From Saprospiraceae bacterium (GTDB taxonomy: Bacteria; Bacteroidota; Bacteroidia; Chitinophagales; Saprospiraceae): DNA of 64,000 nucleotides. The translations under genes were made by a program, and so were the position numbers. Positions 4,807 through 29,675 of this stretch are shown piece after piece (position 1 is the stretch's first letter; each line of letters opens with the position of its first letter). The notes beneath the pieces were generated by a model. It searched no databases, was not told the DNA's origin, and saw only the letters and a program-made list of their open reading frames with translations. The stretch is taken from contig JAWKLJ010000001.1 in assembly GCA_041392805.1 (NCBI GenBank), positions 4,843,101-4,907,100 of the forward strand. Reading direction: 5' to 3'.

Positions 4807-5102
4807 ACAGTAATTTATTTATAAAATTATAAGACTTGTGTATACATTGAATAGCGGATTTAACTATTTTTGCTTTGAGATTTCTACCCTCACTCTCTGA
4901 ATTGCCATGTGCGGCAGTCATCCCCCTTTTTACAACGGAAAAGTATTTAGACTGAAATGATGCAGATCAATTCATCTGTTGCAACTAGTTGGCTTTCAAA
5001 GTAACTAATTGCTTGGTTTTGAGTATACCATTTCAGTATTATTTCACAGGACACTTGTGTAAAGGTGGTTGCAGTAGCTGTGAAGACACTAAGAAAAATC
5101 CC

Positions 5103-8000
5103 ATGACTTTAAAAAATAGAAGTATGTACAACAGACTTTTACTTAGCTTTATCCTGGTTGGCCTTTCCTTTTTTGCAAATGCTCAAATATTAGATACGGA
5201 CAACTATAGGACCTACGATGGGTCCTTTAATAATTTAAACCAAACCGATTGGGGAGCCGCAGGTAGCAATCTTTTGCGCCTGGTACCTGCCACTTTTGCT
5301 GATGGCATTAGTACGCCCACAGGCGAAAATAGGCCCAATCCGAGAACGATAAGCAATACCTTGTTTTCTCAAGAGAATCCCATAAATGATCCACTCAATT
5401 TGAGCGATTTTTGTTGGGTATTCGGCCAATTTATTGACCACGATTTGAGCATCACACCTGATGGGGCAGAACCTGCCTTCATTAAAGTCCCAACGGGTGA
5501 TCCCCATTTTGATCCGCTCTTTCAAGGCACAGCAGTGATCCCTATGCACCGTAGTGCATACGATCATCTGAGTGGTATAGGACCTGATAATCCGCGACAG
5601 CATCCCAATCTCATTACTGCCTTTATTGATGGGTCTGGTGTATATGGCTCTGATGAGCAACGTGCCAATTGGCTTCGAACTTTTACGGGAGGTAAGTTAA
5701 AAGTATCAACGGGTAATTTACTGCCTTTTAATACGGTGGATGGAGAATTCACGAGTGAGTTGGACGTTAATGCACCAGTCATGGATAATCCCACCCATAT
5801 TAGTGAAAAAATGTATGTTGCTGGTGATGTCAGGGCAAATGAAAACCCTTTACTGTTATCTTTCCACACCTTATTTGTTCGGGAACATAATCGTCTTTGT
5901 GATCAATTGATCGTAAAGCATCCCAATTGGACAGATGAGGAATTATATCAATATGCCAGAAAATTGGTAGGAGGTCTAATTCAATCTATTGTATTTGACG
6001 AATGGTTGCCAGCAATGGGCGTTGACCTGCCTGCCTACCAAGGCTATAATGAAACGGTGAATCCTCAACTTTCGAATGTGTTTACTGCTGCTGCTTTTCG
6101 CTTGGGGCATACCCTTTTGAATAGCACCCTCCGAAGAATTGGCAACGATGGAGAAGTCATTCCACAAGGAAATCTAGCACTTCAGGACGCTTTTTTCAAC
6201 ATATATGTTTTTTTAGAAACAGGAGACATTGATCCATTTTTTAAGGGGATGGCCACTCAAATCCAACAAAATATGGATCCGAAGTTGATCAATGATGTGC
6301 GCAATTTTCTATTTGGCCCTCCAGGAGCGGGAGGATTGGATTTGGCAGCGATCAATATCAATAGAGGCCGCGAGCGGGGATTGCCTGATTTTAATGGCGT
6401 TAGAGCAGCTTTAGGCCTTACACCATACGCTTTTTTCCAACAGATTAATTCGGATGCAGGTGTCTTTACCAGGCTGCTTTCTATGTATGCCGATATCCAT
6501 AATATAGATCCTTGGGTTGGGATGTTGGCAGAAAAGCCGATGCCTGGTGCATTGTTTGGCCAAACGATTATGACCATCATGAAACATCACTTTACAAACC
6601 TGAGAGATGGGGATCGGTTTTATTATTGGGTAGATCCTTTACTGTCTGATGCGGATAGAAATTGGATTAAAACGACGACCCTCCATGATGTTATCATGAA
6701 TAATACTGGTATTATTTTGATGCAGAACAATGTCTTTTCTGCTATGCCACATAGTGAAATTTGTGCAAGTATGACCGCAGATGTAGAAGGGATCGTTAGA
6801 ACAGAGTCGGGAGCACCTATTGCTAATGTTGCGCTTCAGCTTGGTTTATCAGAGCAGGAAGGCCTGAATTTTACAACTTCAGAAGAAGGTGATTTTTATT
6901 TCACGGATTTGTTTTCTTGTCAGGTAGAACAACTTTCTATCCATAAAGAAGATGGATTAACCAATGGCGTGTCTACCATAGACCTCATTCTTATCCAAAA
7001 ACATATTCTTGGATTAGGTGCCTTGCCAACAGCCTATAAGATGATTGCAGCGGATATCGATAGAAATGGAACGATTTCTACTATTGATCTTATCTTTTTA
7101 CGGCGTGCTATATTAGGAATCGATCATACATTCCCTAATAATACATCTTGGCGTTTTATAGCGGCTGATTACAATTTCCAAAACCCATCAAATCCATTGA
7201 TGGAAGCTATTCCAGAAATATATGATTTTGCTAGTGTTCCATCAGGGGTGTTAGCCTTGGATTTCATTGGTGTTAAAGTAGGAGATGTGAATGAAAGTGC
7301 CAAGACTACCTTCCAATCAACAGGAGAAGAGGCTCCTATCGCTTTAATGATAAATACAAATGACCAAACGCTTGAATTGGGGGAAGTCGTCCGCGTTCCC
7401 TTCCGATTAGGTAGTACCCAATCAGCTATCATTGGGTACCAGTTTAGTGTTGGGTTTGACGTTTCTAGCCTGGATTTATTAGCTGTTGATCTAGGCGATG
7501 TAGATCTTGATTTGGAAGGAAATTTTGGGACATTCAAAGAAAAAGGATTGCTGACCACTAGCTGGAATGATGAAACAGGGATAAAAGAGGGGATGGATTT
7601 ATTTTATTTGACCTTCAGCGTTAAAAAAGCGGGCCAATTAAGGGATTTGGTTGCCATCAATAGTGCGCTGACCCCTGCTTTGGCCTATGATAATCAAATG
7701 GAGGGAATGCAAGTGGCTTTGCAATTTAGTGAACAAGAAAAAGCCAACCAACTTTTTCAAAACAGGCCAAACCCCTTTAAAGAAACGACTGACATACCAT
7801 TTTATATAGCTAATAGTGGCGAAGTGCATTTGCGCGTATTTGATGTGGCGGGTCGTATGTTGTACCAGCAATCTGCATTTATGGATGCAGGTGAGCACCA
7901 ATGGAGCCTTAGTCGAACAGATTTACCTGCAGAAGGTATATTAGTGTATCAATTAGAGGTGGAAGATGATATTCTTACACGCCGGATGGTACTTGATTAG
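5103..8000 (+). CDS. Secreted animal-type haem peroxidase fused to an Ig-like / dockerin-like / cohesin-like cassette and a T9SS C-terminal sorting domain
   Basis: Signal peptide (MYNRLLLSFILVGLSFFANAQ). Distal-His motif FGQFIDHDL and proximal motif HTLFVREHNRL of the peroxidase-cyclooxygenase superfamily. Dockerin-like Ca-binding pair (...ADIDRNGTISTIDLIFLRRAILGI). Cohesin-like domain (GYQFSVGFDVSSLDLL). T9SS sorting domain (QNRPNPFKETTDIPFYIANSGEVHLRVFDVAGRMLYQQ). The ORF track starts at 4989; I placed the start at the Met at 5103 that precedes the signal peptide. Confidence 0.85.
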   Translation: MTLKNRSMYNRLLLSFILVGLSFFANAQILDTDNYRTYDGSFNNLNQTDWGAAGSNLLRLVPATFADGISTPTGENRPNPRTISNTLFSQENPINDPLNLSDFCWVFGQFIDHDLSITPDGAEPAFIKVPTGDPHFDPLFQGTAVIPMHRSAYDHLSGIGPDNPRQHPNLITAFIDGSGVYGSDEQRANWLRTFTGGKLKVSTGNLLPFNTVDGEFTSELDVNAPVMDNPTHISEKMYVAGDVRANENPLLLSFHTLFVREHNRLCDQLIVKHPNWTDEELYQYARKLVGGLIQSIVFDEWLPAMGVDLPAYQGYNETVNPQLSNVFTAAAFRLGHTLLNSTLRRIGNDGEVIPQGNLALQDAFFNIYVFLETGDIDPFFKGMATQIQQNMDPKLINDVRNFLFGPPGAGGLDLAAININRGRERGLPDFNGVRAALGLTPYAFFQQINSDAGVFTRLLSMYADIHNIDPWVGMLAEKPMPGALFGQTIMTIMKHHFTNLRDGDRFYYWVDPLLSDADRNWIKTTTLHDVIMNNTGIILMQNNVFSAMPHSEICASMTADVEGIVRTESGAPIANVALQLGLSEQEGLNFTTSEEGDFYFTDLFSCQVEQLSIHKEDGLTNGVSTIDLILIQKHILGLGALPTAYKMIAADIDRNGTISTIDLIFLRRAILGIDHTFPNNTSWRFIAADYNFQNPSNPLMEAIPEIYDFASVPSGVLALDFIGVKVGDVNESAKTTFQSTGEEAPIALMINTNDQTLELGEVVRVPFRLGSTQSAIIGYQFSVGFDVSSLDLLAVDLGDVDLDLEGNFGTFKEKGLLTTSWNDETGIKEGMDLFYLTFSVKKAGQLRDLVAINSALTPALAYDNQMEGMQVALQFSEQEKANQLFQNRPNPFKETTDIPFYIANSGEVHLRVFDVAGRMLYQQSAFMDAGEHQWSLSRTDLPAEGILVYQLEVEDDILTRRMVLD

Positions 8001-8397
8001 TTTTTTTTCTTCTCTGACAATTTTTGTCTGGTCTAAATGCGGAAATTGTCAGAGAACCCTCGTTTTATGCGTTGGCAGATAACTGAAAAATGCTCATATC
8101 TATAATAAATTTTTATATTTGCCTGAAAACGCTTAAATTTCCATGTATTTTGATCGCTTTTGTTTTCAAATATGGAAGTGAAGTTAGTCTTCTTGAAAAA
8201 AGTAAGCACTAAATCTACCAGTTTCATTTAAACATAAATATTCCATTGTCTATCGCTTTTTTTTGAGATAGACAAGGTTATTGTATAAAAGCAGAATGTC
8301 TACGTTATGTATTTTTTAACGTAGCATTCAGGCGGGTTTAAGTAGTAATACTTTGTACCTGGCGAGAATCCCATAACATATACAAATCATTGTTGTC

Positions 8398-9075
8398 ATG
8401 CAAATAATCAAAACCTTACTTGCGGACGACCACTACATTTTTATTGAAGGGCTGAAAACCGTATTAAATGAGGCCTTACAATATCAGATCAAAGTTATAG
8501 ATGTTGCTCGTAGTGGAGAAGAACTTATCCAAAAAGTAAAATCGGCAAGAGCTGACTTGGTCATCACAGGCCTAAATTTATCTGGTAAAGATGGCCTGGA
8601 TGTCATTGAGGTGGTGCGTCAAAGTAAGAATCCCATTAAGGTATTAGTACTCAGTGCCTATGATGATCCGAAGATCGTCAAAACCGCTTTTAAATTAGGT
8701 GCTGATGGATATATACTGAAATGCCAGCCTTTGGTCGAGTTGTACCAAGCAATACACGAAATTTTAATGGGGAATACCTACGTCGGAAAAGGAATCCATT
8801 TAAATGGCACGAATGGTAGCGGCCATGGTAGCCATGGAATTCACCAAGCTGTTTTTGATTTTGAAGATCGTTTTATCAAGAAATACAACCTGACTAAACG
8901 GGAGTTGGAGATTCTGGGCTTGATTAGCCAGGCACTAAACAATAAGGAGATAGCAAAAGAGCTATACATTAGTGACCAAACGGTGGGTGTTCATCGCAAA
9001 AATATTATGCGGAAGCTTGGGGTGAGCAATACGGCAGGTTTGATTAAGTTGGCCTATGACTATAGTTTGGTGTGA
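8398..9075 (+). CDS. LuxR/NarL-family response regulator (receiver plus LuxR helix-turn-helix); receiver appears to lack the phospho-acceptor Asp
   Basis: N-terminal receiver domain (LLADDH acidic pocket, GADGYILK lysine). C-terminal LuxR-type helix-turn-helix (LTKRELEILGLISQALNNKEIAKELYISDQTVGVHRKNIMRKLGV). The position aligned to the NarL phospho-Asp reads LVITG instead of LILLD. Confidence 0.85.
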   Translation: MQIIKTLLADDHYIFIEGLKTVLNEALQYQIKVIDVARSGEELIQKVKSARADLVITGLNLSGKDGLDVIEVVRQSKNPIKVLVLSAYDDPKIVKTAFKLGADGYILKCQPLVELYQAIHEILMGNTYVGKGIHLNGTNGSGHGSHGIHQAVFDFEDRFIKKYNLTKRELEILGLISQALNNKEIAKELYISDQTVGVHRKNIMRKLGVSNTAGLIKLAYDYSLV

Positions 9076-9930: not shown

Positions 9931-10020
9931 TTTGCTGTCAAGGTAAAGTTCACAATGATTTGGACTGGTGTATCATAATCTTATTTCTTAACCTAATTCG
10001 TTTACGCAAATTGTAATCTT

Positions 10021-13000
10021 ATGGAAAAAACGAATTTTACATTTGTTCATCCTACACAATGGATGAAACTAGCCTTTTTGCTAGTTGCTACTTTGTGTTT
10101 TGGATTGACTCCAATTACTGGACAAGGGCAAGACGATGCCGATCCAGTTCCTGGCGAAGACATTTGTCTTCCTCCCGCTCTTACAATCACTGGCTGTGAT
10201 GAAGACGGTGCAACCCTAACTTGGTACTCCGTAAATGGAGATCACCATGAAGGTATCAATGACCACTGCTGGTTAATCAAAGTAACTGGTGCAGGACCTG
10301 TACATTTCGCCGGTGGTGGGATCATAGGTGTTGTTGTTGATTACTTAGGCGCTCAATTGCACAATGCTATCGTAGAAGTTGAAATCTGCGAAGGCGATGA
10401 TGCACTTACCATTGCTCCTGTTCCTGGCCATCCTGGCATTTATTCTGTTACTTACGATTTGAGCAGCAACCTCATTCAGCCTGGTACGGCTTATTGGGCT
10501 GCTGTTGCTGAAGTTTGTAACCGTATGCCTGTTTTAGGTAACAATTCTTCTTGGAACTTCCAAAGGGATCTTTTAGTGAACTACCACATCGGTGGACCTT
10601 TCGACACGGATGAAATTTTCGACGAATACCCTTGGGATGGTTACGAAGGTTACTTCAAAACTAAAGACTCTCAATTCACTGCTTCTAGTGATTACGAAAA
10701 AACCTCTTGTCCTGAAGAAACTAATGGATATGTAGAAGATGGTTGTATCGTAGTGACTATCGGCGATGGCGAATCTTGCTGGGGTTTGTACAACATCACT
10801 ATTGATGGTGATTTGATGCTTGTTGGTGGCGAAGAAGCTGTAGGTGCAGGAGAGTATACTTTCTGCGGTTACGGTGTAGGCCCACACGATGTAGACGTTG
10901 AACTCGTAAACGGTTGCAACCCTCCTACCAGAAGATTGGAAGCAGATGTAGTTATTCCTAATGGAATGGACATGGTTTCTCCTATTATTACAGTAGCTGA
11001 CTTCTTTGCTGGTACTTTGCTAGCTAACGAAGGTGGTGATGTAATTGCACTTGGTGACATGTTGATTCCTGAAGGTTCTTGCTCTATGAAGAGCTACTTC
11101 ATCGTTACTGGTGTTGACAACTGTGATGGCGAAATCTGTGATGGTGATGCAGTTACTGCTGAAGCTACAGACGGACCTGCTAACGTTGATCCAGGTACCC
11201 AAGTACAAGTTTATAACCAAGACCAGTATGTTGATACAGGTGAAGGTATTGTTCATTTGCAAGGTTGCGAATGGGTAGTTGAAATCAACTGGTCAGTTGG
11301 CGCATCTGAAGTAACTGTTTGTTTGGATGATGCAGAAGAAGCTGGTTTGTCAGCTCCTACTTGTGTAACAATTACTGCTAATGTGATTGATGCACAGGAT
11401 GCTCTTATTGATGCTCCTGCTGTAAATTATACAATTCCTGAATGCCAGGATCAAGTAACTGTTTTTTACAGCTTCCAAATCGATGATGGTTGTGATAACG
11501 ACATCGATTTTGATCAAGTATTTTTTGATGCATTTGCTTTTGGCGGTATCTCTTTAGATGCAATAACTGAGCTTAGCATTGAAAATGGTTACGCAGAAGT
11601 TATTTTAACTTTCGGAACAGATGGATTCCAAAATGATTTTATTGATGATGGTTTACTTCTTATTACCTATATTGATGATTTTGGTAATGTATATACTGCC
11701 CAACCATTCTTCAATTTATACAACTCCACTATTAACGCTGATCCAGTAATCACAACAACTGGTAACGCTTTCACAGCTTTAGCTTGTGAAGACGGTGGTG
11801 AAGTAGTACTAGGTGTTACTGTTACAGATGATTGCGAAGATGTATTGGACGACGTTAAAATCTCTGGTGATGGTTCTGGTGACCTTACAGCTGCTCCAGC
11901 AGTAAGAAACGGAACATCTGCATACTTCGAATTTTCTGGTACTTTGGCAGCTGACGAATATAGCTTTACATTCAAGTACCCAGGTGCTGGTGATGTAACA
12001 GTAGCCGTTGTAGTTTCTCAGGAAGATAACCACGCTCCTGGTGTGGATATGCCTGGTAACACAACTTTCACTATTCCATCTTGCCAAGATGATGTAACAG
12101 CAGTATGGTCTGTTCAAATTACCGATGATTGTGACGAAGCAATTGATCTTAGCGAAGTATGTATCACTGTAGGTGGTGGTGCTTGTATCGCTATTCCAAG
12201 TGCTAATGCTACTGTTGTTTCTACAGGAGAAGGCATGGCATTGATCGAATTGAACTACGATCTTACGCTTGCAGCTAATGGTGCAGCGTTTGCCGTTTCT
12301 TATACAGATGGTAGCGGTGCTACTACATCTAAAAGTTCTACTGTAAGTGTAAATGGTACGCCTGATGTTATCAAGCCAGTTATCGTTTACCCAACAGAAG
12401 CTATTACAAAAGTATTGGATCCATGTGGACCAAATACAACTGATATCAAATTCTCTGTATCTGCGATTGACAACTGTGCTGGTAATGTAGCTGTTTCTGT
12501 ATCAGCTCCTGGCCGTATAGCTATGTCTTCTGTACCTGAAGGTGATGCTGACAAGTGGACAATTACTTATGCTGCTAGCGCAACACCATACCAGATTACA
12601 TTGTCCGCTAATGATGGACACGGCAACACGACTACACAAACCATGTGGGTAAGTGTAACGCAAGCTCCTGCTCCTCCAGTGAACTTGGCTTGCCACACAG
12701 GCTTGCAAGCTCCTGTTGGTTACCAATGTGAAGTAGAACTAACTCCTGCTATGGTATTGGAAGGTTCTATGGGCTGTTTGACTCCTGCTGACATCGAAAT
12801 CGTTGTTAAAGGAAAACAAAGAGGCGCTGTATGGGCTAACTATACAGAAGGTACTGGTTTGCACCAATTTGATGTTTACATCAATGGCAATTACTTCTGT
12901 ACTGGTAATATTACTACTTATGACAACATTCCTCCATCTATCGAGTGCCCAGCTGATGATCCAGCTGATTACGTTTGCACTGATATTGATGAGTTGTTGG

Positions 13001-16000
13001 GTACATTAGAGTACACAGGTGCACCAAGTATTGGTGATAACTGTTCTGGTGCTACTTACGACTGGTACGAGGAAGTATTATATGGTGAAGACGAAGCTTG
13101 TGATGATTTACGAATTCGTCGTGTATTCACTGTAACTGACGGTGCTGGATTGAAAGCATCTTGCACACAGTATATCACTGTTCGCAAACCTACCTTGGCT
13201 GATGTTACTGGACCAGATGAATTGATTGAATTGAGCTGTGATGATGAATTCGAATATGATGCAAATGGCCACCCATCTCCACCAGAGACAGGCGGATACC
13301 CATATGTTACTACTATTTTCGATGATCACAACTTGGCACAAACATACTGCAACCTTGCAGCTACTTACTCAGATTCTGACTTGATCGAAATTTGCGAAGA
13401 TAGCTACAAATTTATCCGTACTTGGACAGTACTTGACTGGTGTCACCCAGGTCAGTATACAACCTATACTCAGTTGATCAAAGTAGGAGACTTTGACGAT
13501 CCAATCGTTACTGCTCCAACTGCTGACTACGACTGGGATGGTCACTTAGACATCTTGTCTTACTCTACAGGTCCATTCGATTGCTCTGGTGCATTCGAAG
13601 TACCAATGCCTGGTGTTACCGACAACTGCTCTGGCTGGACAGTAACCACTGAAATTCTGAAAGACGGAACAACTCCTGTATTGACTATCGCTCCAGGTGC
13701 CAACCGTTTCGTAAGTGGTATTCCAATGGGTTGCCATGCTTTCCGTTACTGGGTAACTGATGGTTGTGGAAACCAAACTGACATCACTGTACCTTTCATG
13801 GTAGAAGACAAAGTAGCTCCTGTAGCTGTTTGTGATGATGACTTAAACATCTCTATCGGTGGCCAAGGCTACGCTAGAGTATACGCTACTGATATCGACG
13901 AAGGATCTTGGGATAACTGTGGACCAATCCGCGTTGAAGTACGTCGTTTGTACAACGAAGATGCTGATTGTAACCCAATTACTTCTTACTTCAGCGAATG
14001 GGGTGAGTATGTAGACTTCAGCTGCTGCGATATCGGAGATGCTGTAAGAATCGAATTGCAAGTATGGGATGACCGCAACGGTGACGGTATTCCAGGTAAC
14101 ACAATTACTATCGTTAACTGTGATGGTCAGGAAGTTGTTGTAAAAGACAACAGCAACACTTGCTGGTTAGACGTAACAGTAGAGGATAAATTGAATCCAT
14201 ACTGTGTACCTCCTCACAACAAGACCATCACTTGTGATGCATTACCATACGACTTCGATCCTAGTGACATCGAATTGTTAGAGGACCTATTCGGTCAGGC
14301 TGACTACGCAGACAACTGCCCAGGTGCTTCTGTTGAAGAAAATGCACCAGTTATTACAATTGACGATTGTGGAACAGGAACGATCCTACGTTCTTTCACT
14401 GCTACAGATGCAGTAGGATTAACTTCTACTAACAGCTGCCAGCAGTTGATTACCATTACAGAAGTACACAACTACGAAATCCGCTTCCCAGCTGATGATT
14501 CAGCTGATTGTGGTGTAGCTGATCCTGATACGATTACTTTCAACGAGATTGGTTGTGACCTATTGGCCGTAAGTGTAGAAGATGAATTCTTCTCTGCTTC
14601 TGGCGATGAGTGCTACAAAATCTTCCGTACTTACCGAGTGATTAACTGGTGTGAGTATGATGGTGAAGCACCTCCAGTAGTTGTAAGCCGTGACGAAGAT
14701 TGTGATGGCAAACCTGGTGATGAAGCAGTTTGGGTACTACGTAGACCAAACGGTGCTGTTTACTTCGACCGTGATAACGTTGAGACTAACAACAACCCAC
14801 TTGCAGGTACTAAAGGCACATCTTGCGATGGCTTGACGAACCCTAAAGGTTACTGGATTGACAGCTACATTGATGCTAACGCAACACGTGATCCTATCAC
14901 TGGTCAGTTGGATAACAACTACACCAACGATAACATCCGTAACATTGATACAAGAGGATACTGGCAGTATACACAGGTCATCAAAGTTTACGACAGTGTT
15001 GACCCAGTTATTACTGTTGAGGCATACGATGCATTCCCATCTTTGGATAATGTAAACTGTGACGGATTAGTAACTATCAACTTCAAAGTTGAAGATGAGT
15101 GTACAAGAGAAGAAGGCTTGAAATTTGTTTGGTTGGATGCATTTATCAATGATGCTGACGGTGACGGAAACTTCACTCAAGCAGAATTTGTAAAAGATCA
15201 TGATGTAACAGCTCAAATCACTGGCGATGCTTCTGGTTACACTTACTCTGCAGAATTGCCACAAGGTACACACGCCTTATTGATCAAAGGATCAGATGGT
15301 TGTGGAAATGAGACAGTTGACCTGATTATCTTCGAAGTAGTAGATACTAAAGCACCAGCACCAGTTTGTATCAATGGTTTGGCAGTAGAATTAATGCCAA
15401 CTGAGCCAGGTACTGACGCTGATGGCGATGGTGACGAAGACAGAGCTGCAATGGCTATTTGGGCAAATGACTTTATCGCTAGCCCAATCTATGACTGTAA
15501 CGGTCAAGGCCCAGCAGTAGATGCAAACGGTAACGAATTGGTTACTGCTTACTCTATCAACTTGGTAGGCGCAGAACCTAACCGTGACTCTACAGGTATC
15601 GTATTAACTTGTGATAACGACGAAACAACTATCGTGGAAATCCACGCTTGGGATGAAGTTGGAAATCATGACTACTGCGAAACTTACGTTTTAGTACAAG
15701 ATTTGATGAACAGATGTGAAGGTGGTGAAGATGGTGCCATTGCTGGTAACATCAAAACTGAAGGTGGAGAAGGTGTTGCTGACGTTGAAGTTTCTTTAAG
15801 TGGCTTCATGAATTCAATTTACACTACTCAAAACGACGGTTACTACGTATTCCATAACCTTCCAGTGAACGACTACTCTGTAGCTCCTCAATTGGATGTG
15901 AACTACTTGAACGGTGTATCTACTTTTGACCTTGTATTGGTAAGCAAACACATCTTGGGCATCCAATTATTGGATTCTCCATACAAAATGATTGCTGCTG

Positions 16001-16941: not shown

Positions 16942-16964
16942 TCGTCCTTCGATGAAATACATTT

Positions 16965-17897: not shown

Positions 17898-17928
17898 ATT
17901 ATATTCCCTAACATCCCAAATTCCGAAC

Positions 17929-20900: not shown

Positions 20901-23400
20901 TTCGGATGCAAACAACTGTTCTAAAAGCTTGAATAATATCAATATCTTAAGTGCATTCGATCCTATTGTGATCAGCTTGAGTCTTACCCCTATTCCAAAT
21001 ACGGCTGGGGGAACTGGTTCTATAAATGCTTCTATTTCGGGCGGTACCGGCCCTGGAACCTATGGATTTTCTTGGACAGGACCGGGAGGGTTTACCTCAG
21101 CTTCTGAAGACCTTAACAACCTCACCGGCAAAGGGGAATATTGCCTTCAAGTGACAGATAACAATAACTGTGTAGAGACGATTTGTGTAAATCTTGGTAA
21201 TTTATTGGAAATCACTTCCTTTAATATTGTAAAAGCTTGTGAAAATACCTGTAATGGTGCTGTAAATATATCAACAGTGGGTGGCCTTACCGGTGGGAGT
21301 GCTACCTTTGCATGGCAACGGGTCGGCGAAAACCCTGTAATCAGCTCTGTTGAAGATTTGACCAATGTATGTGCCGGTACCTATCGGGTAACCATTGTGA
21401 AAGATGGCCAAGAAGTAACGGGTACATTTGAGGTAACTAATTTCGAATTGGATATTCAAGCGACTACAACTCCTTCTACCAACAATACGAATGGAACCAT
21501 TTCTATCAATATATCAGGTGGAAATTCAGGTTATAGTATTGTATGGGATAATGGAGATACAGGTCCAAATGCCAATGAACTTCCTGCGGGAGAAATATGT
21601 GCTACGATCACGAGTAATGCAAATGGTTGTGCTACGCAGGAATGCTTTATTATCCCTTCCCTCCCATTTACCTTGTCAGGAATGAATGTAACTGAAACAA
21701 CCTGTAGCGGAAGAGCGGATGGTCTAATTGCCATCGTTGTAGTAGGCGGTATTCAGCCTTATTCGCTTTCGGTTGCCGGGCGGCCAGCACTTAGCCAAAC
21801 GAATGCTGCTGGCACCTTCAATTTGGTCGGTTTAGCATCGGGCTCTTATAATATTACAGTTAAAGATGCCCTTGGTTCCGAATTGACGCCCGTAGCCGTT
21901 GTTCCAGATGTAGCGCCTATTGCCGTAGACTGGGAAGTTGTAAATGATACAGAGGACCCCGGAGGATCAGGTTCAATTACATTGGATATTGCCGGCGGTC
22001 GGGCACCCTATTCAATAGGTTGGAATATTCCGGTGAATGGCCCCCAACCTATTCAGTTGGCTTGTGGAACTTACACGCCTATTATTGAAGATGCCAATGG
22101 TTGTGTTAAAGACGGTATCGAAATAGAGGTGTTGTGTTTTACTGAAGAGGCTACAACTGCAAATGTATCTTGTCCAGGTGATACAGATGGATCACTAAGT
22201 ATCGCATTGACCGGAGCTGCACCTTACCAATTCAAATGGAAAAACCTAAGTACAAACGAAAATTTTGAGGCAGGTGAAAACCTGACAGATTTGGCCGCAG
22301 GAAACTATTCCGCTACCATAACGGATAATTCAGGTGCCGTATTGATTAGAACCTATGTGATAGGAACGCAATCTGGACTAAGATTTAATACCTTAGAAAC
22401 CGTATCTTCTTTTAACGGATTTGCCGTTAGTTGTAATTATGCCAGTGATGGTGTTTTGCGTGCAGTAGGTGGCGGCAACCAAGGACCACTTAGCTATGAA
22501 TGGTTGAACGAAGATGGCGCCGTTGTCAGCTCAGCTTCTACTTTTAATTCAGCATCTCCGGGCGTTTATACGATTAGGGTTTTTGATGATGTTTGTGTGC
22601 TTGAAGAGACGATCGAGGCAAATGCCCCAGCGCCACTCGCTGTAGAAGCGATTAACCTAAAAGGAATTAGCTGTGCTGATGAATTTGATGGCCAAATCAA
22701 CGTATTGGCAAGTGGCGGAATTAGTCCTTATATCTACCGATGGAGTAGCAACGACTTTGGTGATGAGGCCCGTTTCCTCGGTGCAGGTGATTATACTGTT
22801 ACCGTTACAGACAAAAACAATTGTGTAGATGCATCTACTTTCACCATTGCGGAACCGGCACCATTAGAGGTAGTAGTCGAGACAGAGCCTGAAACAGAAA
22901 ACTGTAATGGGGCCGCAAGGGCCATCGTTACAGGAGGTACAGAACCTTATTCCTACAACTGGATAAAACCGGCAGGCTTGAATACGGCACAGATTGCGGG
23001 CCTTTGTAATGGTACCTACTTTGTGGAAGTAACAGATGCCAATGGTTGTACCTCTGCACAAGGGGAGGTTGCCGGAGTGGTTAAAGATAAACGCTTCCCA
23101 TGTTTTGAAGATAGGGTAGTATTGACACCCGATGGAGATGGACTCAATGACGCTTTAATTATTTTCTGCTCGGATGAATATCCTCAAAATCATATTGAGA
23201 TTTATAATCGCTGGGGACAATTAGTCTATGAGGAAGATAATTATGATTGTACGGAACTTGGTGGAATGAATTGTTTCGCTGGTGAGACCATTCGAGGAGA
23301 AGCCTTACCGGAAGGGGCCTATTATTGGGTACTCCAGTATGTAGATACGAATGGAGATAATATCCAAATGAAAGGTTCATTGACGATCTTGAGAGAGTAA
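17929..23400 (+). CDS. SprB-repeat cell-surface protein (1823 aa) with five N-terminal tandem cohesin-like modules and a gliding-motility-associated C-terminal domain (type-B T9SS sorting domain)
   Basis: Signal peptide. Five roughly 125-aa repeats (ANQGDQICLD...LGMQFSINYDP..LQF...G.ITMSWSDPN..G...ADGTV.FE.CF.V.G) separated by Gly8-10 linkers. At least 10 SprB-type repeats (C.G..NGSI...V.GGT.PY.Y.W). C-terminal VVLTPDGDGLNDALIIF...YNRWGQLVYEE matches the gliding-motility C-terminal domain. Confidence 0.85.
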   Translation: MMDRIFTRLFAGLLLLIPISISANPTIGRTNDLEGFTITLEDFDANQGDQICLDASVSGFMNILGMQFSINYDPAILQFNNISNTNLTGLSPNSFGNPSAGNITMSWSDPNAVGLTLADGTVVFEVCFTVVGTAGTTVTFSDTPTPTEIVDGTLTVIGFTGQESAVTVNGNSPGGGGGGGGGNTGITLTIEDIAANQGDQVCLDVTASNFTNILSLQNSISYDPAVLQFSSISNTNLAGLSANSFGNPSAGKITMSWADPNNTGLSVADGTVLFEICFNVIGTTSTTVVDFSNTPTPIKVVNGAQTEIGLTSNSGTVTVTGNNGGGGGGGGNENPNFTGFGLAIEDVSANQGDQICLDVVAYNFNSILGMQYTISYDQSKLQFSSIANTNLAGLSANSFGNPTPGKITLSWSDPNAVGVSVADGTVIYEVCFNVLGTTSTTVTFTSSPTIIEIIDSGLNEISFEKNDGVVTLNGGGGGGGGGGNTGPSFTGFGVVIEDTAANQGDKVCLDVTAYDFVNILGTQFTINYDPGRLQFVEIANPNLVGLSSGAFGNPSPGNLTFSWSDPNAVGVTVPDETVIFQICFNVLGNNTSTTVSISGTPTGIEIIDSGLNEVPFNYDSGTVTISDNGSGPGFEGFGIIVGDKSLQEGDSFCVPVSVQEFVGILGMQFTISYNATELQLDQITGFNLNGLAAASFNSSTPGTIRFTWDDPNATGVTLNPADDPNTIFELCFTVIGTNSSQICIVDTPVAVEITASDLTVITPTLICGNILVGEDPPPTVTATITGVSCPGENNGSIALQVSGVGPNYSYQWSIPGLGNANTASGLSAGNVTVTVTDNGTNLQTIETFTVPSPAAMNITPTIKHASCSDATDGSISLAVTGGTGPFTYNWSPTGTNTSQNTGLASGVYNVTVTDRNSCVTTAGPFIVESPSAINISVISVQNVQCASDQTGAIAIAVNGGTPPYSINWNGNLPDNTTTQSGLSAGSYSVVVSDANNCSKSLNNINILSAFDPIVISLSLTPIPNTAGGTGSINASISGGTGPGTYGFSWTGPGGFTSASEDLNNLTGKGEYCLQVTDNNNCVETICVNLGNLLEITSFNIVKACENTCNGAVNISTVGGLTGGSATFAWQRVGENPVISSVEDLTNVCAGTYRVTIVKDGQEVTGTFEVTNFELDIQATTTPSTNNTNGTISINISGGNSGYSIVWDNGDTGPNANELPAGEICATITSNANGCATQECFIIPSLPFTLSGMNVTETTCSGRADGLIAIVVVGGIQPYSLSVAGRPALSQTNAAGTFNLVGLASGSYNITVKDALGSELTPVAVVPDVAPIAVDWEVVNDTEDPGGSGSITLDIAGGRAPYSIGWNIPVNGPQPIQLACGTYTPIIEDANGCVKDGIEIEVLCFTEEATTANVSCPGDTDGSLSIALTGAAPYQFKWKNLSTNENFEAGENLTDLAAGNYSATITDNSGAVLIRTYVIGTQSGLRFNTLETVSSFNGFAVSCNYASDGVLRAVGGGNQGPLSYEWLNEDGAVVSSASTFNSASPGVYTIRVFDDVCVLEETIEANAPAPLAVEAINLKGISCADEFDGQINVLASGGISPYIYRWSSNDFGDEARFLGAGDYTVTVTDKNNCVDASTFTIAEPAPLEVVVETEPETENCNGAARAIVTGGTEPYSYNWIKPAGLNTAQIAGLCNGTYFVEVTDANGCTSAQGEVAGVVKDKRFPCFEDRVVLTPDGDGLNDALIIFCSDEYPQNHIEIYNRWGQLVYEEDNYDCTELGGMNCFAGETIRGEALPEGAYYWVLQYVDTNGDNIQMKGSLTILRE
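18031..20220 (+). repeat. Five tandem cohesin-like coding repeats of about 450 nt, separated by in-frame GGC/GGT (poly-Gly) simple-sequence tracts
   Basis: Protein-level periodicity of about 150 aa. Glycine-codon runs at about 18451-18480, 18898-18925 and 19348-19380. Confidence 0.75.
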
Positions 23401-23495
23401 AGGTTTTATTGCCAGGTGGGTGGTTCTATTCACCTGGCAATACTTAAACCTCCGTTGCTTATAATATTATTTTCCCATGACTTCAACCGATTAAC

Positions 23496-24422
23496 ATGAA
23501 AAAAATAACTTTACTCCTATCATTTTTAGTTTTTACGACAGCACTTGTCGCTCAATATGAAGCCATTTTCAACCATTATAACCTTAGCAATGGTAGCCGT
23601 AACCTCATTAACCCAGCTGCTGCGGGGTTCGATGCAGTTTCTCAGCTCCAATTTAATCTGAGAGCTCAATGGACCGGCTTTGAAGATGCACCTAAAACTT
23701 ATGGTGCACTTTTTAATGCTCCTATTGGAAAGGCCTTTGGCTTGGGCCTAGGTATTTACTCAGAACAAGCGGCCCAATTGGCTAATTTGCGAATTTTTCT
23801 TAACTACGCTTTTCGCTTTCAGCTTAGCGAAGACTTTAAGGTCTCCGCTGGTTTTTCAACTGAATTTCAGCAAATGACCTTGAATAGCGATGTGCTGAAC
23901 AAACCGCTATTACAATTGGGCGATGACTTGGTTGATGAATTCCTCAGTGGTAAAGGTATTTTTGATGCTGCAATAGGGTTTTATGGTACTTTTCGTGAAA
24001 ATACCTTTGGTGGCTTGAGTCTAAATAACCTCGTCCGAAACAAATTGGATGAAATGGTTGCTTCTCCACAACAATCTACCTCCATCTTTCAATATTATAC
24101 CTTTATTCTAGGGCATAAATTTGACTTGTACGACCTCAATTTTAGCTTGGAGCCATCACTGGCAATTCGTCAGATCTTTAGCACCCCAGCATCAATGGTT
24201 GACATCAATTTGAAAGCGGGTTTCTTAGAAGATCAACTCATTGCAGGACTCTCTTATCGAACAGGGACATCTATTGCAGCGCTTGGTATTCTGCTCGGAA
24301 CCAAGTTGTCTGGCTTTAACCTATATTATTCTTATGATGTCTCTTTCGCACGTTTCCAGGACTATAGCGTAGGTTCTCATGAAGTGACAGTGGCTTTTAT
24401 CTTTGAGGGTAAGGATCAATAA
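23496..24422 (+). CDS. PorP/SprF-family T9SS outer-membrane protein
   Basis: 308 aa with a signal peptide and beta-barrel-like alternating hydrophobic pattern. It sits immediately downstream of a protein with a type-B sorting domain, which is the usual arrangement for SprB/SprF-like pairs. Confidence 0.75.
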   Translation: MKKITLLLSFLVFTTALVAQYEAIFNHYNLSNGSRNLINPAAAGFDAVSQLQFNLRAQWTGFEDAPKTYGALFNAPIGKAFGLGLGIYSEQAAQLANLRIFLNYAFRFQLSEDFKVSAGFSTEFQQMTLNSDVLNKPLLQLGDDLVDEFLSGKGIFDAAIGFYGTFRENTFGGLSLNNLVRNKLDEMVASPQQSTSIFQYYTFILGHKFDLYDLNFSLEPSLAIRQIFSTPASMVDINLKAGFLEDQLIAGLSYRTGTSIAALGILLGTKLSGFNLYYSYDVSFARFQDYSVGSHEVTVAFIFEGKDQ

Positions 24423-24460
24423 ACTACTAAGATGTCCTTTTAACAATTGGTTTTTGGGAT

Positions 24461-24496
24461 GACCTCTCTCCTGTTCGGGGAGGGGTCGCTTGTTTT
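24461..24496 (+). terminator. Rho-independent terminator after the PorP/SprF gene (copy 1 of a duplicated terminator module)
   Basis: gacctctctcctgttcggggaggggtc hairpin (with U-G wobble pairs) followed by gcttgtttt. Preceded by the conserved lead-in ggtttttgggatg. Confidence 0.55.
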
Positions 24497-25148
24497 ATAA
24501 TTTCTTTGCCTTTTCAAAATACCTTTTTTAGGGTATTTTTAGCATTGAAATAAACCGTATATTTGTTAGGTATATAAGAAACAAATTATAATCCTTGGTC
24601 TTAAATAGCTTTATGCTATCTTTCATCTCTTAGCTTCAGCTTGCCTCCTACGTGCTTGCCTTCCCTAAGAATCGAAGCGATCCTGGATTTCCTTCTAAAG
24701 AGCTTTGAGCGTCTTCCCAAAAAAAACAGTAATATTTTAGAGAATGAGTGTGTAAAGCTTTTTTCACATTATCATCTCTAATGGCACACCCTAGCATTGT
24801 TGTCTTTTGATGCCAATGTCTTTTATGTGGTGTGATGCTTACCTTTTGTATGATCATAGACCCTTGAGGTAAGGAGGTGAAGCTCCAAATAGCGTCCAAT
24901 CAATGGTAGGCAGCGTTTGGCGTTTCGGTTAGTTACTCAAGGTTTTTGATCTGATTTTCTAGGGAATACATATTTTAAAAAAATCCTTAGATTTTATTTT
25001 ATACGAATGAAACCTTAAAGAAGATAGTCCGTAATACTCTATATAACTTTTATGAAACCTCAAAGAAAATTATAATTAAGGCGATTGGATTGTATGTGAT
25101 TCACACAAGAACCGTTTTCAAGTGTATACTTAAATCGGTTTTTGGGAT

Positions 25149-25191
25149 GGCCTCTCTTCTATGCAGACAGAAGGGGGGCTTTTTTTATTTT
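25149..25191 (+). terminator. Rho-independent terminator (copy 2 of the duplicated module) inside a gene-free 1.3-kb interval
   Basis: ggcctctcttctatgcagacagaaggggggc hairpin followed by tttttttatttt. Same ggtttttgggatg lead-in as copy 1. Confidence 0.55.
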
Positions 25192-25715: not shown

Positions 25716-28700
25716 ATGAAACACTTTAATCGCAATTTAGCACAGGGGAGGAGCAGTCTAGTAACTGCGTTTTTCCGCTGGGGTGCAGGGAAAAAAGCGG
25801 GGGTGCTACTCCTTACCTTTTTTGCTATGATCCCTTTGTTTAGCCAGGATTGTGACCTCGCTTGCAATGGATCAATTGAAGCTCCCATCCAATTATCAAT
25901 CGGAACAGATTGTATGGCTAATTTTGATTTTGATGCCATACTCGAAGCGCCACAGGTATGCCCAGGTACCAAATCACTGGTGGTTAGAAATGAGATGAAT
26001 ATACTGGTGAGCGATGGCATGAATGAAGTCGCTTTTGATGCATCCCCCTACCTTGATAAAATATTGAGTGTCACCGTTACAGATGTAGCAACGGGTGTTT
26101 TTTGTGTTGGATTTATCCATATTATTGACAAATTAGACCCCGTCATAAGTAATTGCGAAGATGTAACGGTAAATTGTATTGATAATACGACACCAGAAGG
26201 AACGGGCTTTCCTCAAGGGAAAGACAACTGTAGCAGTGACCTGCAGATGACCTTTACAGATGAAGTGTTGGATGGAAACTGCACCTCCGGATTGATGAAA
26301 ATGATCCAAAGAACCTGGACGGTTAAGGATGATTTCGAAAATACGGCTACTTGTGTACAAACCATCACGGTTGAACGTCCTAATGTACAGGATGTCGCCT
26401 TTCCACCCAATATTAACCTTAGTTGCGATAACCCTAATGCAGATGGAGAAATAACCGGCGTACCTACTTATGGTGGCCAACCCATCAGTACCAGTAATGA
26501 ATGTGGGTTAGTTGTAAAAATGACAGCTGACACAGCCTATATCTGCGGGGAGTTTGAATACCAAATTCACCGGTCCTGGTTGGTAACCGATGTATGTTCA
26601 GGCTTTGAAAGTACCGATTTGCAGATCATTCATGTTAAAGATACTACTCCGCCCGAAATTACCTGTCCGGCAGATTTTACGGTAACGACGGAAGGCGGTG
26701 ATTGTATTGCCACCCTTAGCTTACCCGAACCTACCATGGTAGATAATTGCGATCCTGGGGTGACTTTTGAAGTGAGCACTTCCTTTGGCGCAGTAGGCCT
26801 TGGACCCCACCCATTTGTCCCTGCTGGGATGCATACAATACAGTATATCGCCACAGATGCTTGCGACAATTCCTCTAAATGCACGATGACCGTCAATGTA
26901 TTAGACAGTGATGAGCCCTTTGCGGTGTGCGAAAATTTCACCATCATATCAATCCCTTCCGGAGGAGTGGCGATGGTATTGGCTAACACCTTTGACGATG
27001 GCAGTTTTGATAATTGTCAAGATGAAATCTTTTTCAAAGCCAGAAGAATGAACCTGGGCGGATGTGATGCCATCAACGGCGATGACTCCAGTGTAATTGA
27101 AGGCTACCAGGAGTGGTTTGATGACCGGGTATTCTTCTGTTGTAATGAGGCAGAAGGAGGGGACATCCAAGTGATTATGCGCGTCTATGAAATAGATCCG
27201 GGGCCAGGACCTGTCGACCCTCAAAGAGAAATAACGGGAGGAGACCTACATCGCCACTACTCAGAATGCATGGTAATGGTGCAAATACAGGACAAAATTC
27301 CGCCTCGGTTTTTAACTTGTCCCGAAACGGTGACCATAGAATGTAAGGATGACTATTCGGACCTCAGCATATTTGGTACGCCACATGTAGAAGACAATTG
27401 TGGCTATACGCTAGATTCTACAGCTATTGTAGCGATCAATGATTGTGGAATAGGGAGTATTATCAGAACATGGGAGGCTTCGGATGCCGTAGGGAATACA
27501 GCGAATTGCCGACAGGAGATCTTGGTGATCAATTCCAATCCATTAACGGAGGAGGAGATCGTTTGGCCAGACGATTTTACAACAGATATTTGTGGTTCAA
27601 GTATTGACCCAGAGGACCTCCCCGATGGCCATAACGAACCTCAAATAATAGGCGATCACTGTGGGATTATTAGTTTTAATTACCACGATCAGGTATTTGA
27701 TGTAGCCCAACCGGCTTGTTATAAAGTACTGCGAACCTGGACGGTGCTAGATTGGTGTCGGTATGATCCCGATAACCCCAATAGCGAAGGTAAATTCCAG
27801 AGTATTCAAATTGTAAAAGTGGTAGATAAAGTAGCCCCGGTTATTACCTGCCCACCTGCTGTAACTGTTAGTGTATCAGATGATTGTGCTACAGGGGAAG
27901 CTGAACTTGGGTTGGCCAGCGCAGCTGATTGCAGTACAGGCATTTTGATAACCAATAATTCGCCATATGCCAATAACAATGGCCCCAATGCTAGCGGAAA
28001 TTATCCCCTGGGCATCACTACCGTAACCTACACGGCAGCTGACCGTTGCGGGAACACGGCCTCCTGCCAGGTGAATATTACTGTGGCAGATAATGAACCG
28101 CCGCAACCGCTCTGCATTGTAGGTTTGTCTTCTTCCATTTATGAAGAAGAAGGTGAATTAATGACCCGTCTGAATGCCAAATCTTTTGATGCTGGCGCCA
28201 AGGATAATTGCACGCCTTCTGCGCAATTGAAATTCACTATACGTCGCAATGGTTCGGGTGATATGACAACACCACAGACCCCAGAAATCATTTTTACTTG
28301 TGAGGACCTCGGTACCCAACTCGTCGAACTTTGGGTGACGGATGCACTTGGCAATAGCAACTATTGCCTTACCTATGTGGATATCCAAGACAACAATAGG
28401 CTTTGCCCACAAAGTAACACGAGTTCCGGCGCTATTCTGGCAGGAGGAATAACGACGGAAGATGGAGAATACGTAGAAAATGTCAATATCAATGTTTCAG
28501 GTGGTGGCCATTTCCAAATGTTGACGGAAGACAATGGGCACTATTTATTCCCTGATATTCCTTTTGGCGAGGATTATACCGTCGTGCCCGTCCGGAATGA
28601 CGATTTATTAAATGGGGTAACCACCATTGATCTGGTCCTGATCTCCAAGCATATTCTCAATAGCCAGAAACTGGATTCTCCCTATAAACTCATAGCGGCG

Positions 28701-29675
28701 GATGTTGATCGCTCAGGGCATATCTCAACTTTGGATTTAATCCGGCTACGACGTTTGATTTTGCACATAGACGAGGAATTTCCTAATGGCAATAAGTCCT
28801 GGCGATTTGTTGATGCGGATTATCGGTTCCCTGATCCAAAGAATCCATTTATTGCCTATTTTCCTGAGATTTTTAATATCAATGATTTGGATTATGATGA
28901 AATGCATGCCGATTTTATTGGTGTCAAAGTGGGAGATGTGAATCAATCAACACGGCCCAATAACCTGGTAGGCATTGAAGATCGAAGTACCCTGGGAGAA
29001 ATGTTGTTGCAGACGATTAGCCAAACCGTTCGTGAGGGCGAAACCTTTAGTGTTCATTTTACGGCCAAAGATATGCGCGACATGTTGGGCTTTCAATTTA
29101 CCCTGCAATTCAATACCGATTTTCTCGAATTTGTTCATTTAAAAGAAGGAAGCATTCCCGACATGGGAGAAGATAACTTTGGTATGAAATACCTGGAACA
29201 AGGTTTTATCACCAGTAGTTGGAATGAACTTGAGCCAGTAAAGATCAGTGACAAAGAGACTTTATTCACCCTGGAATTCAGGGCTAAAGCCGCCGGAAAA
29301 ATAGACGATTGGTTGGCTATGAGTTCCCGTTTGACCATACCCGAAGCCTATACCAAGGATGGCGACCAACGCAACCTCCGCCTGGAATTTATAAGCTCAG
29401 ATCTAGGAAAAGAACAATTTGAGTTGCATCAAAATAAGCCTAATCCGTTTGATAACCAAACGACTATATCCTTTAATATGCCGCAATATGATATAGCAAG
29501 GTTGAGTATCTATGATATGGCGGGGAAAGTCATATTTGAACAGGAGGAACTTTTCCAACAGGGTTATAACGAGATTGTCGTTCGAAGAGATCAATTGCCT
29601 TCCACTGGTATTTTTTATTACAGTGTAGAAACGGCAAATAAAAAGGAAACAAAGAAAATGATTCTTTTAGATTAA
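25716..29675 (+). CDS. Large (1319 aa) secreted HYR/Ig-repeat protein ending in the same Ig-like / dockerin-like / cohesin-like cassette and a T9SS sorting domain
   Basis: HYR-like repeats (QRTWTVKDDFENTATCVQTITVERP; TDACDNSSKCTMTVNV). Dockerin-like pair (GVTTIDLVLISKHIL...ADVDRSGHISTLDLIRLRRLILHI). Cohesin-like domain (FIGVKVGDVNQSTRPNNLVGIEDRS...). Sorting domain (LHQNKPNPFDNQTTISFNMPQYDIARLSIYDMAGKVIFEQ). Confidence 0.8.
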   Translation: MKHFNRNLAQGRSSLVTAFFRWGAGKKAGVLLLTFFAMIPLFSQDCDLACNGSIEAPIQLSIGTDCMANFDFDAILEAPQVCPGTKSLVVRNEMNILVSDGMNEVAFDASPYLDKILSVTVTDVATGVFCVGFIHIIDKLDPVISNCEDVTVNCIDNTTPEGTGFPQGKDNCSSDLQMTFTDEVLDGNCTSGLMKMIQRTWTVKDDFENTATCVQTITVERPNVQDVAFPPNINLSCDNPNADGEITGVPTYGGQPISTSNECGLVVKMTADTAYICGEFEYQIHRSWLVTDVCSGFESTDLQIIHVKDTTPPEITCPADFTVTTEGGDCIATLSLPEPTMVDNCDPGVTFEVSTSFGAVGLGPHPFVPAGMHTIQYIATDACDNSSKCTMTVNVLDSDEPFAVCENFTIISIPSGGVAMVLANTFDDGSFDNCQDEIFFKARRMNLGGCDAINGDDSSVIEGYQEWFDDRVFFCCNEAEGGDIQVIMRVYEIDPGPGPVDPQREITGGDLHRHYSECMVMVQIQDKIPPRFLTCPETVTIECKDDYSDLSIFGTPHVEDNCGYTLDSTAIVAINDCGIGSIIRTWEASDAVGNTANCRQEILVINSNPLTEEEIVWPDDFTTDICGSSIDPEDLPDGHNEPQIIGDHCGIISFNYHDQVFDVAQPACYKVLRTWTVLDWCRYDPDNPNSEGKFQSIQIVKVVDKVAPVITCPPAVTVSVSDDCATGEAELGLASAADCSTGILITNNSPYANNNGPNASGNYPLGITTVTYTAADRCGNTASCQVNITVADNEPPQPLCIVGLSSSIYEEEGELMTRLNAKSFDAGAKDNCTPSAQLKFTIRRNGSGDMTTPQTPEIIFTCEDLGTQLVELWVTDALGNSNYCLTYVDIQDNNRLCPQSNTSSGAILAGGITTEDGEYVENVNINVSGGGHFQMLTEDNGHYLFPDIPFGEDYTVVPVRNDDLLNGVTTIDLVLISKHILNSQKLDSPYKLIAADVDRSGHISTLDLIRLRRLILHIDEEFPNGNKSWRFVDADYRFPDPKNPFIAYFPEIFNINDLDYDEMHADFIGVKVGDVNQSTRPNNLVGIEDRSTLGEMLLQTISQTVREGETFSVHFTAKDMRDMLGFQFTLQFNTDFLEFVHLKEGSIPDMGEDNFGMKYLEQGFITSSWNELEPVKISDKETLFTLEFRAKAAGKIDDWLAMSSRLTIPEAYTKDGDQRNLRLEFISSDLGKEQFELHQNKPNPFDNQTTISFNMPQYDIARLSIYDMAGKVIFEQEELFQQGYNEIVVRRDQLPSTGIFYYSVETANKKETKKMILLD

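Follow-up and report, generated by a model that had tools for sequence, protein, structure and literature searches.

In a 64,000-nucleotide (nt) stretch of a Saprospiraceae bacterium genome (assembly GCA_041392805.1, contig JAWKLJ010000001.1; hereafter the window), a locus of seven genes at 4989-29675 may encode a non-cellulosomal cohesin-dockerin assembly that is coupled to the type IX protein secretion system (T9SS) and that holds and cross-links adhesins and a peroxidase on the cell surface, a reading that we hold tentatively, its prospects falling a little short of even. Five of the seven genes encode T9SS substrates with cohesin and/or dockerin modules. Three of these proteins, P1, P3 and P7, end alike in a cassette of ~410 amino acids (aa) composed of a beta-sandwich, a dockerin-like module, a linker, a cohesin and a type A C-terminal sorting domain (CTD). 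As we envisage it, the dockerin units of P1, P3 and P7 would bind, with Ca2+, the conserved 8-3-6-5 face of cohesins, the partners being the cohesins of P5 and P4, which would act as cohesin-only anchors, or those in the cassettes of neighbouring cargo proteins, or both. A multivalent surface layer would thereby hold and interconnect the adhesins and the peroxidase, and in it P5 on its P6 carrier would probably serve as a static anchor for docked cargo, with the adjacent response regulator controlling the cluster.

A check of the open reading frames (ORFs) confirmed the seven genes, all on the plus strand, at the positions previously called:

4989-8000, plus strand: P1, 1003 aa, a secreted animal-haem-type peroxidase with the cassette at its C-terminal end
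8398-9075, plus strand: a cytoplasmic NarL/LuxR-type response regulator (Response_reg and GerE), part of the conserved cluster, with no kinase gene adjoining it within the window
10021-16941, plus strand: P3, 2306 aa, a Cys-rich adhesin-like protein with the cassette at its C-terminal end
17091-17897, plus strand: P4, 268 aa, with a signal peptide, a single cohesin (nt 17169-17600) and a type A CTD
17929-23400, plus strand: P5, an 1823-aa stalk bearing five cohesins at its N-terminal end, then SprB repeats and a type B CTD
23496-24422, plus strand: P6, a PorP/SprF-family outer-membrane carrier for the type B CTD protein
25716-29675, plus strand: P7, 1319 aa, a HYR / HYR_4C adhesin-like protein with the cassette at its C-terminal end

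An earlier note on this DNA had described five consecutive plus-strand genes, all with T9SS sorting signals. The strand was borne out, but the five are not consecutive, since the regulator lies between P1 and P3 and the PorP gene between P5 and P7. The sorting signals were found in every case: the type A model TIGR04183 (cut-off 23 bits) matched P1 (24.3 bits), P3 (33.8 bits), P4 (41.3 bits) and P7 (38.1 bits), and P5 carries a type B CTD. All six secreted proteins have signal-peptide-like N-termini, as read from their translations.

The cohesin modules of the locus are real cohesins and not generic immunoglobulin (Ig) or fibronectin type III (FN3) folds, the alternative that had been left open when they were called cohesin-like and one that now fails. 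The Pfam Cohesin model (PF00963, gathering score (GA) 24.1 bits) was exceeded in P1 (28.0 bits), P4 (45.7 bits), P5 (190.1 bits over five modules) and P7 (33.9 bits). When a nine-module profile was run against PDB chains, 35 matches were returned (best E 2e-9), all of them cohesins save three designed Ig-like proteins. By fold the modules are nine-stranded beta jelly-rolls that lie closer to solved cohesins than to generic Ig/FN3 domains, and the best structural matches of the cassette cohesin are type I cohesins of Clostridium thermocellum. P4 is, as had been proposed, a small protein made of one such domain and a sorting domain.

Conservation in the cassette cohesins is concentrated on one sheet. 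Of the 38 positions on strands 8-3-6-5, the dockerin-binding face in known cohesins, 17 reach a conservation of 85% or more, compared with 4 among the 41 of the opposite sheet (strands were assigned to the sheet by order and homology). The key motifs are a Q on strand 3, which aligns with the Asp/Asn of type I cohesins in the PDB profile alignment, T-x-S-W on strand 6 and an E on strand 8. P4, P5 and 220 stalk-type modules of relatives share these motifs. By overall identity the modules of the locus are diverse: modules 1-4 of P5 are mutually 55-65% identical and module 5 is 35-42% identical to them, the P4 cohesin is ~25% identical to the P5 modules, and the cassette cohesins share 30-35% identity among themselves and 16-25% with P4 and P5.

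The cassette that joins a cohesin to a dockerin-like module is shared end to end by the three cargo proteins, the last 404 aa of P3 aligning over their whole length with the tails of P1 and P7 at 36-37% identity. Its parts in the locus, scored with Pfam models and with family hidden Markov models (HMMs) for the dockerin and cassette cohesin built in this analysis, are:

6939-7142, plus strand: P1 dockerin-like module (family dockerin HMM 94 bits; Dockerin_1 20.9 bits)
7335-7730, plus strand: P1 cassette cohesin (PF00963 28 bits; family HMM 110 bits)
15880-16089, plus strand: P3 dockerin-like module (family HMM 113 bits; Dockerin_1 18.6 bits)
16270-16659, plus strand: P3 cassette cohesin (family HMM 142 bits; without a Pfam match)
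28419-29672, plus strand: P7 cassette as modelled (beta-sandwich, dockerin, linker, cohesin, type A CTD)
28581-28787, plus strand: P7 cassette dockerin
28794-28967, plus strand: P7 cassette linker
28974-29390, plus strand: P7 cassette cohesin
29409-29669, plus strand: P7 cassette type A CTD

The linker is a conserved segment of 58 aa with the pattern SWRF...NP...PE...KxGDVN. An AlphaFold2 model of the P7 cassette reached a mean predicted local distance difference test score (pLDDT) of 95.3 and a predicted template-modelling score (pTM) of 0.80, with dips just at residues 181-190 and 321-340; the dockerin helices lie at 69-79, 88-94 and 104-114, the linker forms strands, and a structure search matched the modelled CTD to the CTD structures of mirolase and NucA. 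Because a pTM of 0.80 was obtained for a chain of four modules, we infer from the model that the modules are held in a fixed, compact arrangement. A structured linker and a compact cassette would also suit a self-contained pedestal, in which the dockerin and cohesin of each cassette bind or pack in cis with no docking between proteins, forming a rigid, Ca-stabilised stalk between the passenger and the CTD or lipid anchor, with P5 an independent adhesin whose tip binds some other ligand. We consider this somewhat unlikely, though it deserves serious weight. One point that tells against it is already apparent, namely that the putative binding-face residues are common to all three cohesin subfamilies.

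In inter-protein docking, the preferred reading, the dockerin would be the binding module, and it was profiled over 123 cassettes. Its second Ca loop is canonical and nearly invariant (D-x-N/D-x-S-G-x-I/V-T/S-T-x-D), with D95, N/D97 and D106 each conserved at 100%, I/V102 at 99% and S99 at 90%. A Ser/Thr-Thr pair, which follows the Ile/Val of each loop and precedes the loop-closing Asp, is kept in both repeats, and an Arg-Lys pair is conserved on the last dockerin helix. These are positions that we take to be cohesin contacts in the C. thermocellum type I complex. PDB dockerins were also found with the P7 cassette as a phmmer query (E 4e-5 to 0.3). No dockerin signature particular to the locus-linked cassette proteins was seen among the profiled dockerins, all of which are nearly alike; since the dockerins are so uniform and the cohesin face is shared, the two would suit promiscuous pairing.

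Such conservation bears on a further possibility, that the cohesin and dockerin folds are generic spacers, inherited fillers without a specific partner, and that their clustering simply reflects co-regulation of adhesins. Many non-cellulosomal modules do have no known partner (PMC6487960, citing Peer et al. 2009). Fillers would, however, hardly be expected to show dockerin residues conserved very strongly over thousands of paralogs, cohesin conservation specific to one face, or near-identical cohesins whose copy number varies from 4 to 8 between species in the manner of a scaffoldin, and we regard the idea as quite improbable.

The passengers that would be docked are a peroxidase and two adhesin-like proteins. 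In P1 a Pfam An_peroxidase match (E 1e-148, aa 73-583) is followed by a weak CarboxypepD_reg-like beta-sandwich, the dockerin, the cohesin and the type A CTD; its Dockerin_1 score lies just under the PF00404 GA of 22.9 bits and its Cohesin score over GA. P7, which like P3 is Cys-rich, matches HYR, HYR_4C, Dockerin_1 (24.4 bits, over GA) and Cohesin in Pfam. For P3 the type A CTD was the sole model to pass in Pfam and NCBIfam, with Dockerin_1 below GA and with neither a cohesin match nor a direct HYR match in the Pfam search; its residues 888-1551 nevertheless align with the P7 HYR region at 30% identity (E 9e-53). The claim that the peroxidase and both giant proteins each carry a dockerin and a cohesin therefore stands for all three, with the qualification that the P3 modules fall below Pfam thresholds and are recognised by homology.

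The stalk protein P5 also proved to be what had been supposed, an 1823-aa SprB-repeat protein with five cohesins, a type B CTD and a PorP/SprF partner downstream. Its features are:

18031-18441, plus strand: P5 cohesin 1
18481-18894, plus strand: P5 cohesin 2
18943-19350, plus strand: P5 cohesin 3
19399-19812, plus strand: P5 cohesin 4
19834-20253, plus strand: P5 cohesin 5 (HMM scores of the five, 206-234 bits)
20296-23088, plus strand: P5 SprB repeats (SprB HMM)
23119-23391, plus strand: P5 type B CTD (CHU_C PF13585)

The five Cohesin matches total 190 bits and are followed by at least 8 SprB repeats (148 bits) and by the CTD, which scores 76.2 bits with CHU_C (GA 27 bits) and 30.5 bits with the type B model TIGR04131, under its cut-off of 35 bits. 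No carbohydrate-binding module was found on P5 in the Pfam search. Cohesins 1-4 are joined by linkers with runs of 7-10 glycines (18442-19398), and the linker between cohesins 4 and 5 is without a poly-Gly run; the Gly-rich linkers probably caused spurious PDB matches to single-chain variable fragment (scFv) antibodies, which map to the first P5 linker region.

Type A and type B cargo differ in how they are retained. T9SS type A cargo is passed to PorV, after which it is either set free or fixed to the surface of the cell. Each type B substrate remains attached, in the outer membrane, to a PorP/SprF carrier of its own (PMC12635249), and P6, which begins 95 nt downstream of P5 and scores 169.5 bits with TIGR03519 (cut-off 90.55 bits), would be the carrier here. 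In this respect P5 and P6 resemble SprB and SprF of Flavobacterium johnsoniae: P5 shares the SprB repeats and the type B (CHU_C) CTD, and its gene is directly followed by one of the PorP/SprF family. They differ from the F. johnsoniae pair in the cohesins at the P5 tip. The F. johnsoniae SprF also requires a C-terminal Cys-X-Cys for its disulfide with GldK on the moving track (PMC12635249). That motif is absent from P6, which has no cysteine at all, and from its nine orthologs in related genomes (loci L001-L009), in which no cysteine occurs beyond residue 44 of the called ORFs. Because P6 is without a Cys-X-Cys tail, the P5 stalk is probably static, unlike an adhesin driven along a gliding track; no helical propulsion would be expected of it, and the suggestion that the locus sits on gliding-type surface machinery is weakened.

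The gene arrangement is conserved in relatives, the closest loci being ~70% identical to this locus at the protein level. The order regulator (where present), cassette protein, P4 (where present), multi-cohesin SprB stalk and PorP is kept in 11 loci (L001-L009, L019 and L021), in which the cohesin region of the stalk shares 27-70% identity with that of P5, and it recurs even where this region is just 27-36% identical. An upstream cassette protein is visible in 7 of these 11 loci with stalk and PorP. L002 holds the whole locus (P1-like tail, regulator, P3, P4, P5, PorP and P7); P4, P5, PorP and P7 are found in L001 and L003, a giant cassette protein with P4, P5 and PorP in L004 and L005, P4, P5 and PorP in L006, and the regulator, a cassette protein, P4, P5 and PorP in L008. 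Three loci were reached through more distant stalk homologs: L019 (regulator, 1715-aa cassette protein, 268-aa cohesin-CTD protein, stalk, PorP), L020 (regulator, stalk, PorP) and L021 (regulator, HYR/Laminin_G cassette protein, six-cohesin stalk, PorP). In L001-L006, L008 and L019 the stalk gene is directly preceded by a P4 homolog, and the number of stalk cohesins varies from 4 to 8 among orthologs. The synteny comparison thus shows the stalk/PorP and cassette gene arrangement recurring across 11 loci. This consistent linkage of a cassette protein to cohesin-only genes is not what a pedestal acting purely in cis would lead one to expect.

Beyond these loci the cassette belongs to a very large family. 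Full-length matches to the cassette number at least 1,220 protein clusters, and all 120 among the matches listed cover 83-100% of the query; with a sandwich-dockerin-linker profile, 5,651 representative clusters were retrieved at E <= 1e-30, the longest proteins reaching ~5,900 aa, and nearly all of the matches listed for this part bear the full cassette. Where named, these relatives are called 'hypothetical' or 'T9SS type A sorting domain-containing', and their sources, where named, are Saprospiraceae, Lewinella, Phaeodactylibacter and unclassified Bacteroidota. The standard cassette is present in 104 of 145 representatives. Among the rest, as seen in P0187-P0219, some have dockerin units in duplicate or triplicate but lack a cohesin, some carry the cassette in tandem and some combine dockerin units with stalk-type cohesins; in P0201 stalk-type cohesins alternate with dockerin units. 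Because relatives shuffle the modules into dockerin-only, cohesin-only and mixed proteins, a docking network is plausible, and this is, by analogy, the repertoire of a real cohesin-dockerin network. Dockerin units that stand in two or three copies without any cohesin, and stalk-type cohesins without dockerins, also sit poorly with a pedestal. Cassette proteins are in addition scattered in genomes among unrelated neighbours, as are the dockerin-bearing proteins of cellulosome producers, and no cohesin-SprB stalk/PorP pair like that of the present locus was found near the cassette, dockerin-only and mixed proteins at L017, L018, L022 and L023. At L023 two large SprB-repeat genes lie upstream.

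Several results weigh against docking between proteins. The sequence pattern expected of a Ca-binding dockerin is seen in its helices and its canonical loop 2 and falls short in loop 1, which is degenerate, keeping ligand positions 1, 3, 9 and 12 with a Leu at position 5. Two of the three dockerins of the locus (P1 and P3) score under the Pfam threshold. When P5 cohesin 3 was fused through its native Gly linker to the P7 dockerin unit, AlphaFold2 gave no confident docking (pTM 0.51), with a pLDDT of ~95 for the cohesin and of 43-59 for the dockerin, a result confounded by the shallowness of the block-diagonal alignment of this job, which held just 16 homologous dockerin rows against 123 in the cassette job. 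The degenerate loop and the unpredicted docking would also suit generic spacers. The low dockerin confidence is equally consistent with a dockerin that needs its own cohesin and CTD to fold, which would favour a role in cis. Moreover, the dockerin of the standard cassette always lies ~225-240 aa from the C-terminus, beside its own cohesin; given this fixed spacing in 104 of 145 representatives and the compact cassette model, a purely internal role for the dockerin is possible. Finally, all cargo proteins bear their own CTD, and docking is not obviously needed for their retention at the surface. The pedestal draws on several of these grounds: dockerin, linker and cohesin are co-inherited at fixed spacing in those representatives and in all 120 matches listed, the dockerin loses confidence once its own cohesin and CTD are removed, and every cargo protein already has an anchor signal.

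A true cellulosome-like enzyme complex for polysaccharide degradation was considered and rejected, as no carbohydrate-active enzymes or carbohydrate-binding modules (CBMs) are present in the locus and the cargo consists of a peroxidase and HYR adhesin-like proteins; we attach a negligible likelihood to it. The layout that defines cellulosomes is nonetheless there, as had been noted: a stalk with several cohesins, a type B CTD and a PorP partner stands beside dockerin-bearing cargo. What fails is the step from this layout to a cellulosome. P5 is a scaffoldin in the sense of a non-catalytic protein with multiple cohesins (five here, 4-8 in orthologs). As in the C. thermocellum cellulosome (CipA, Olp/SdbA), tandem near-identical cohesins are carried on a non-catalytic scaffold and the dockerins have duplicated F-hand segments, and P4 resembles OlpA/OlpC in being a single-cohesin surface anchor. 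Unlike in the clostridial cellulosome, anchoring relies on T9SS CTDs of types A and B in the outer membrane of a Gram-negative cell and not on SLH domains or sortase, the dockerin is fused to its own cohesin in most representatives, and binding is putative. In a study of Posidonia banquettes, the cohesin and SLH genes of two Bacteroidetes metagenome-assembled genomes (MAGs) were read as suggesting cellulose degradation; one of the two, MAG096, in which cohesin-related genes were reported, was described as Maribacter-related (PMC8547425). Our locus L001 comes from an isolate named MAG.096.

Cohesins and dockerins outside cellulosomes have several precedents. In Clostridium perfringens, cohesin and dockerin modules link secreted non-cellulolytic proteins such as GH84C NagJ and GH33 NanJ (PDB 2w1n, 2vo8) into complexes; there, however, the host is Gram-positive and no common C-terminal cassette, multi-cohesin stalk or T9SS is involved. 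In Archaeoglobus fulgidus (PDB 2xdh) a cohesin and a dockerin occur in one polypeptide, but these archaeal proteins are single genes with no sorting domain and are not a large family. Non-cellulosomal cohesins and dockerins are likewise recognised in two sources (PMC6487960, PMC8542988, citing Peer et al. 2009). A precedent with a T9SS CTD is Candidatus Stygibacter (Cloacimonadota), for which a tandem-cohesin, CTD-anchored scaffoldin that recruits dockerin-bearing secreted proteins was inferred from sequence (PMC8542988). That scaffold, in a different phylum, bears CBM2/CBM3 modules, and the cargo consists of hydrolases with an ordinary dockerin at the C-terminus; the part of the source considered here describes no dockerin-cohesin-CTD cassette and no type B CTD/PorP anchor. 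The view that a T9SS-anchored assembly of this kind had not been characterised thus holds in that no experimental study was found in a literature search on cohesin/dockerin with T9SS, SprB or Saprospiraceae, and has to be tempered by the Cloacimonadota precedent. The literature searched held no description of this cassette or gene cluster.

The size of the family invites a wider proposal, which we regard as unlikely: a lineage-wide mode of T9SS cargo organisation in Saprospiria, in which a universal tail on thousands of proteins would plug head to tail and onto the cohesin-only anchors P4 and P5 to give a self-assembling, programmable outer-membrane coat. P5 would stand on its PorP carrier, and P4 would have a lipid anchor, provided that its type A CTD undergoes the same processing as that of other T9SS cargo. 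Such a coat, if real, would be a second, independent large-scale use of cohesin-dockerin pairing, unrelated to biomass degradation. The narrower docking reading also matters, as the arrangement and retention of T9SS cargo are poorly understood outside Porphyromonas and Flavobacterium. If the dockerins bind cohesins in trans, a modular docking layer would sit atop the T9SS and would involve a very large cassette family; it would explain the joint display of giant adhesins and enzymes in abundant marine and wastewater bacteria, extend cohesin-dockerin biology to Gram-negative outer membranes and offer new orthogonal cohesin-dockerin pairs for surface display. The docking hypothesis is directly testable with small recombinant modules.

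The regulator gene lies upstream in L002, L008, L019, L020 and L021. The residue that aligns with the phospho-acceptor Asp of NarL (D59) is Gly here, Ala in L002 and Glu in L021, and L008, L019 and L020 keep the Asp; judging from these residues, the regulator may act without phosphorylation in this clade. The genes that flank the locus are housekeeping genes. Within it, terminator-like hairpins lie 3' of P3 (16964-16988) and P6 (24460-24488), and the gaps between P4 and P5 (31 nt) and between P5 and P6 are short, which together suggest the transcription units P3, P4-P5-P6 and P7. The P1 ORF as listed begins at TTG 4989, 38-45 codons upstream of the signal peptide, and judging by its sequence the real start is probably the ATG at 5103 or 5124. 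A scan for sigma-70 promoters gave 43 sites against 44 expected, that is, no enrichment, with a model that is unsuited to Bacteroidota promoters.

Two other groups of proteins were noted. L010-L016 are a separate family in other Saprospiraceae genomes, mostly of 1350-1580 aa, with one stalk-type cohesin at about residues 300-440 followed by SprB-like repeats, and with no P4-like, PorP-like or cassette ORF detected nearby. At 62151-63368 on the minus strand of the window lies a gene for a 405-aa protein that has a type A sorting domain (39.6 bits), no other recognisable domain and no cassette.

A scan of the window against Rfam was negative at gathering thresholds. A nearly invariant block of ~213 nt (24978-25190) is found between PorP and P7; ~118 nt of it show 100% identity across three related genomes, the proteins of which are just 65-75% identical. 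The block, itself without an Rfam match, has an RNA fold z-score of -2.35; at its end stands a strong terminator hairpin (25149-25180) with a T-rich tail, TTTTTTTATTT, behind it. Directly 3' of the PorP stop (24449-24488) the motif GGTTTTTGGGATGRCC and a hairpin occur as well, giving 2 copies against 0.07 expected. The block may be a small RNA or a regulatory element.

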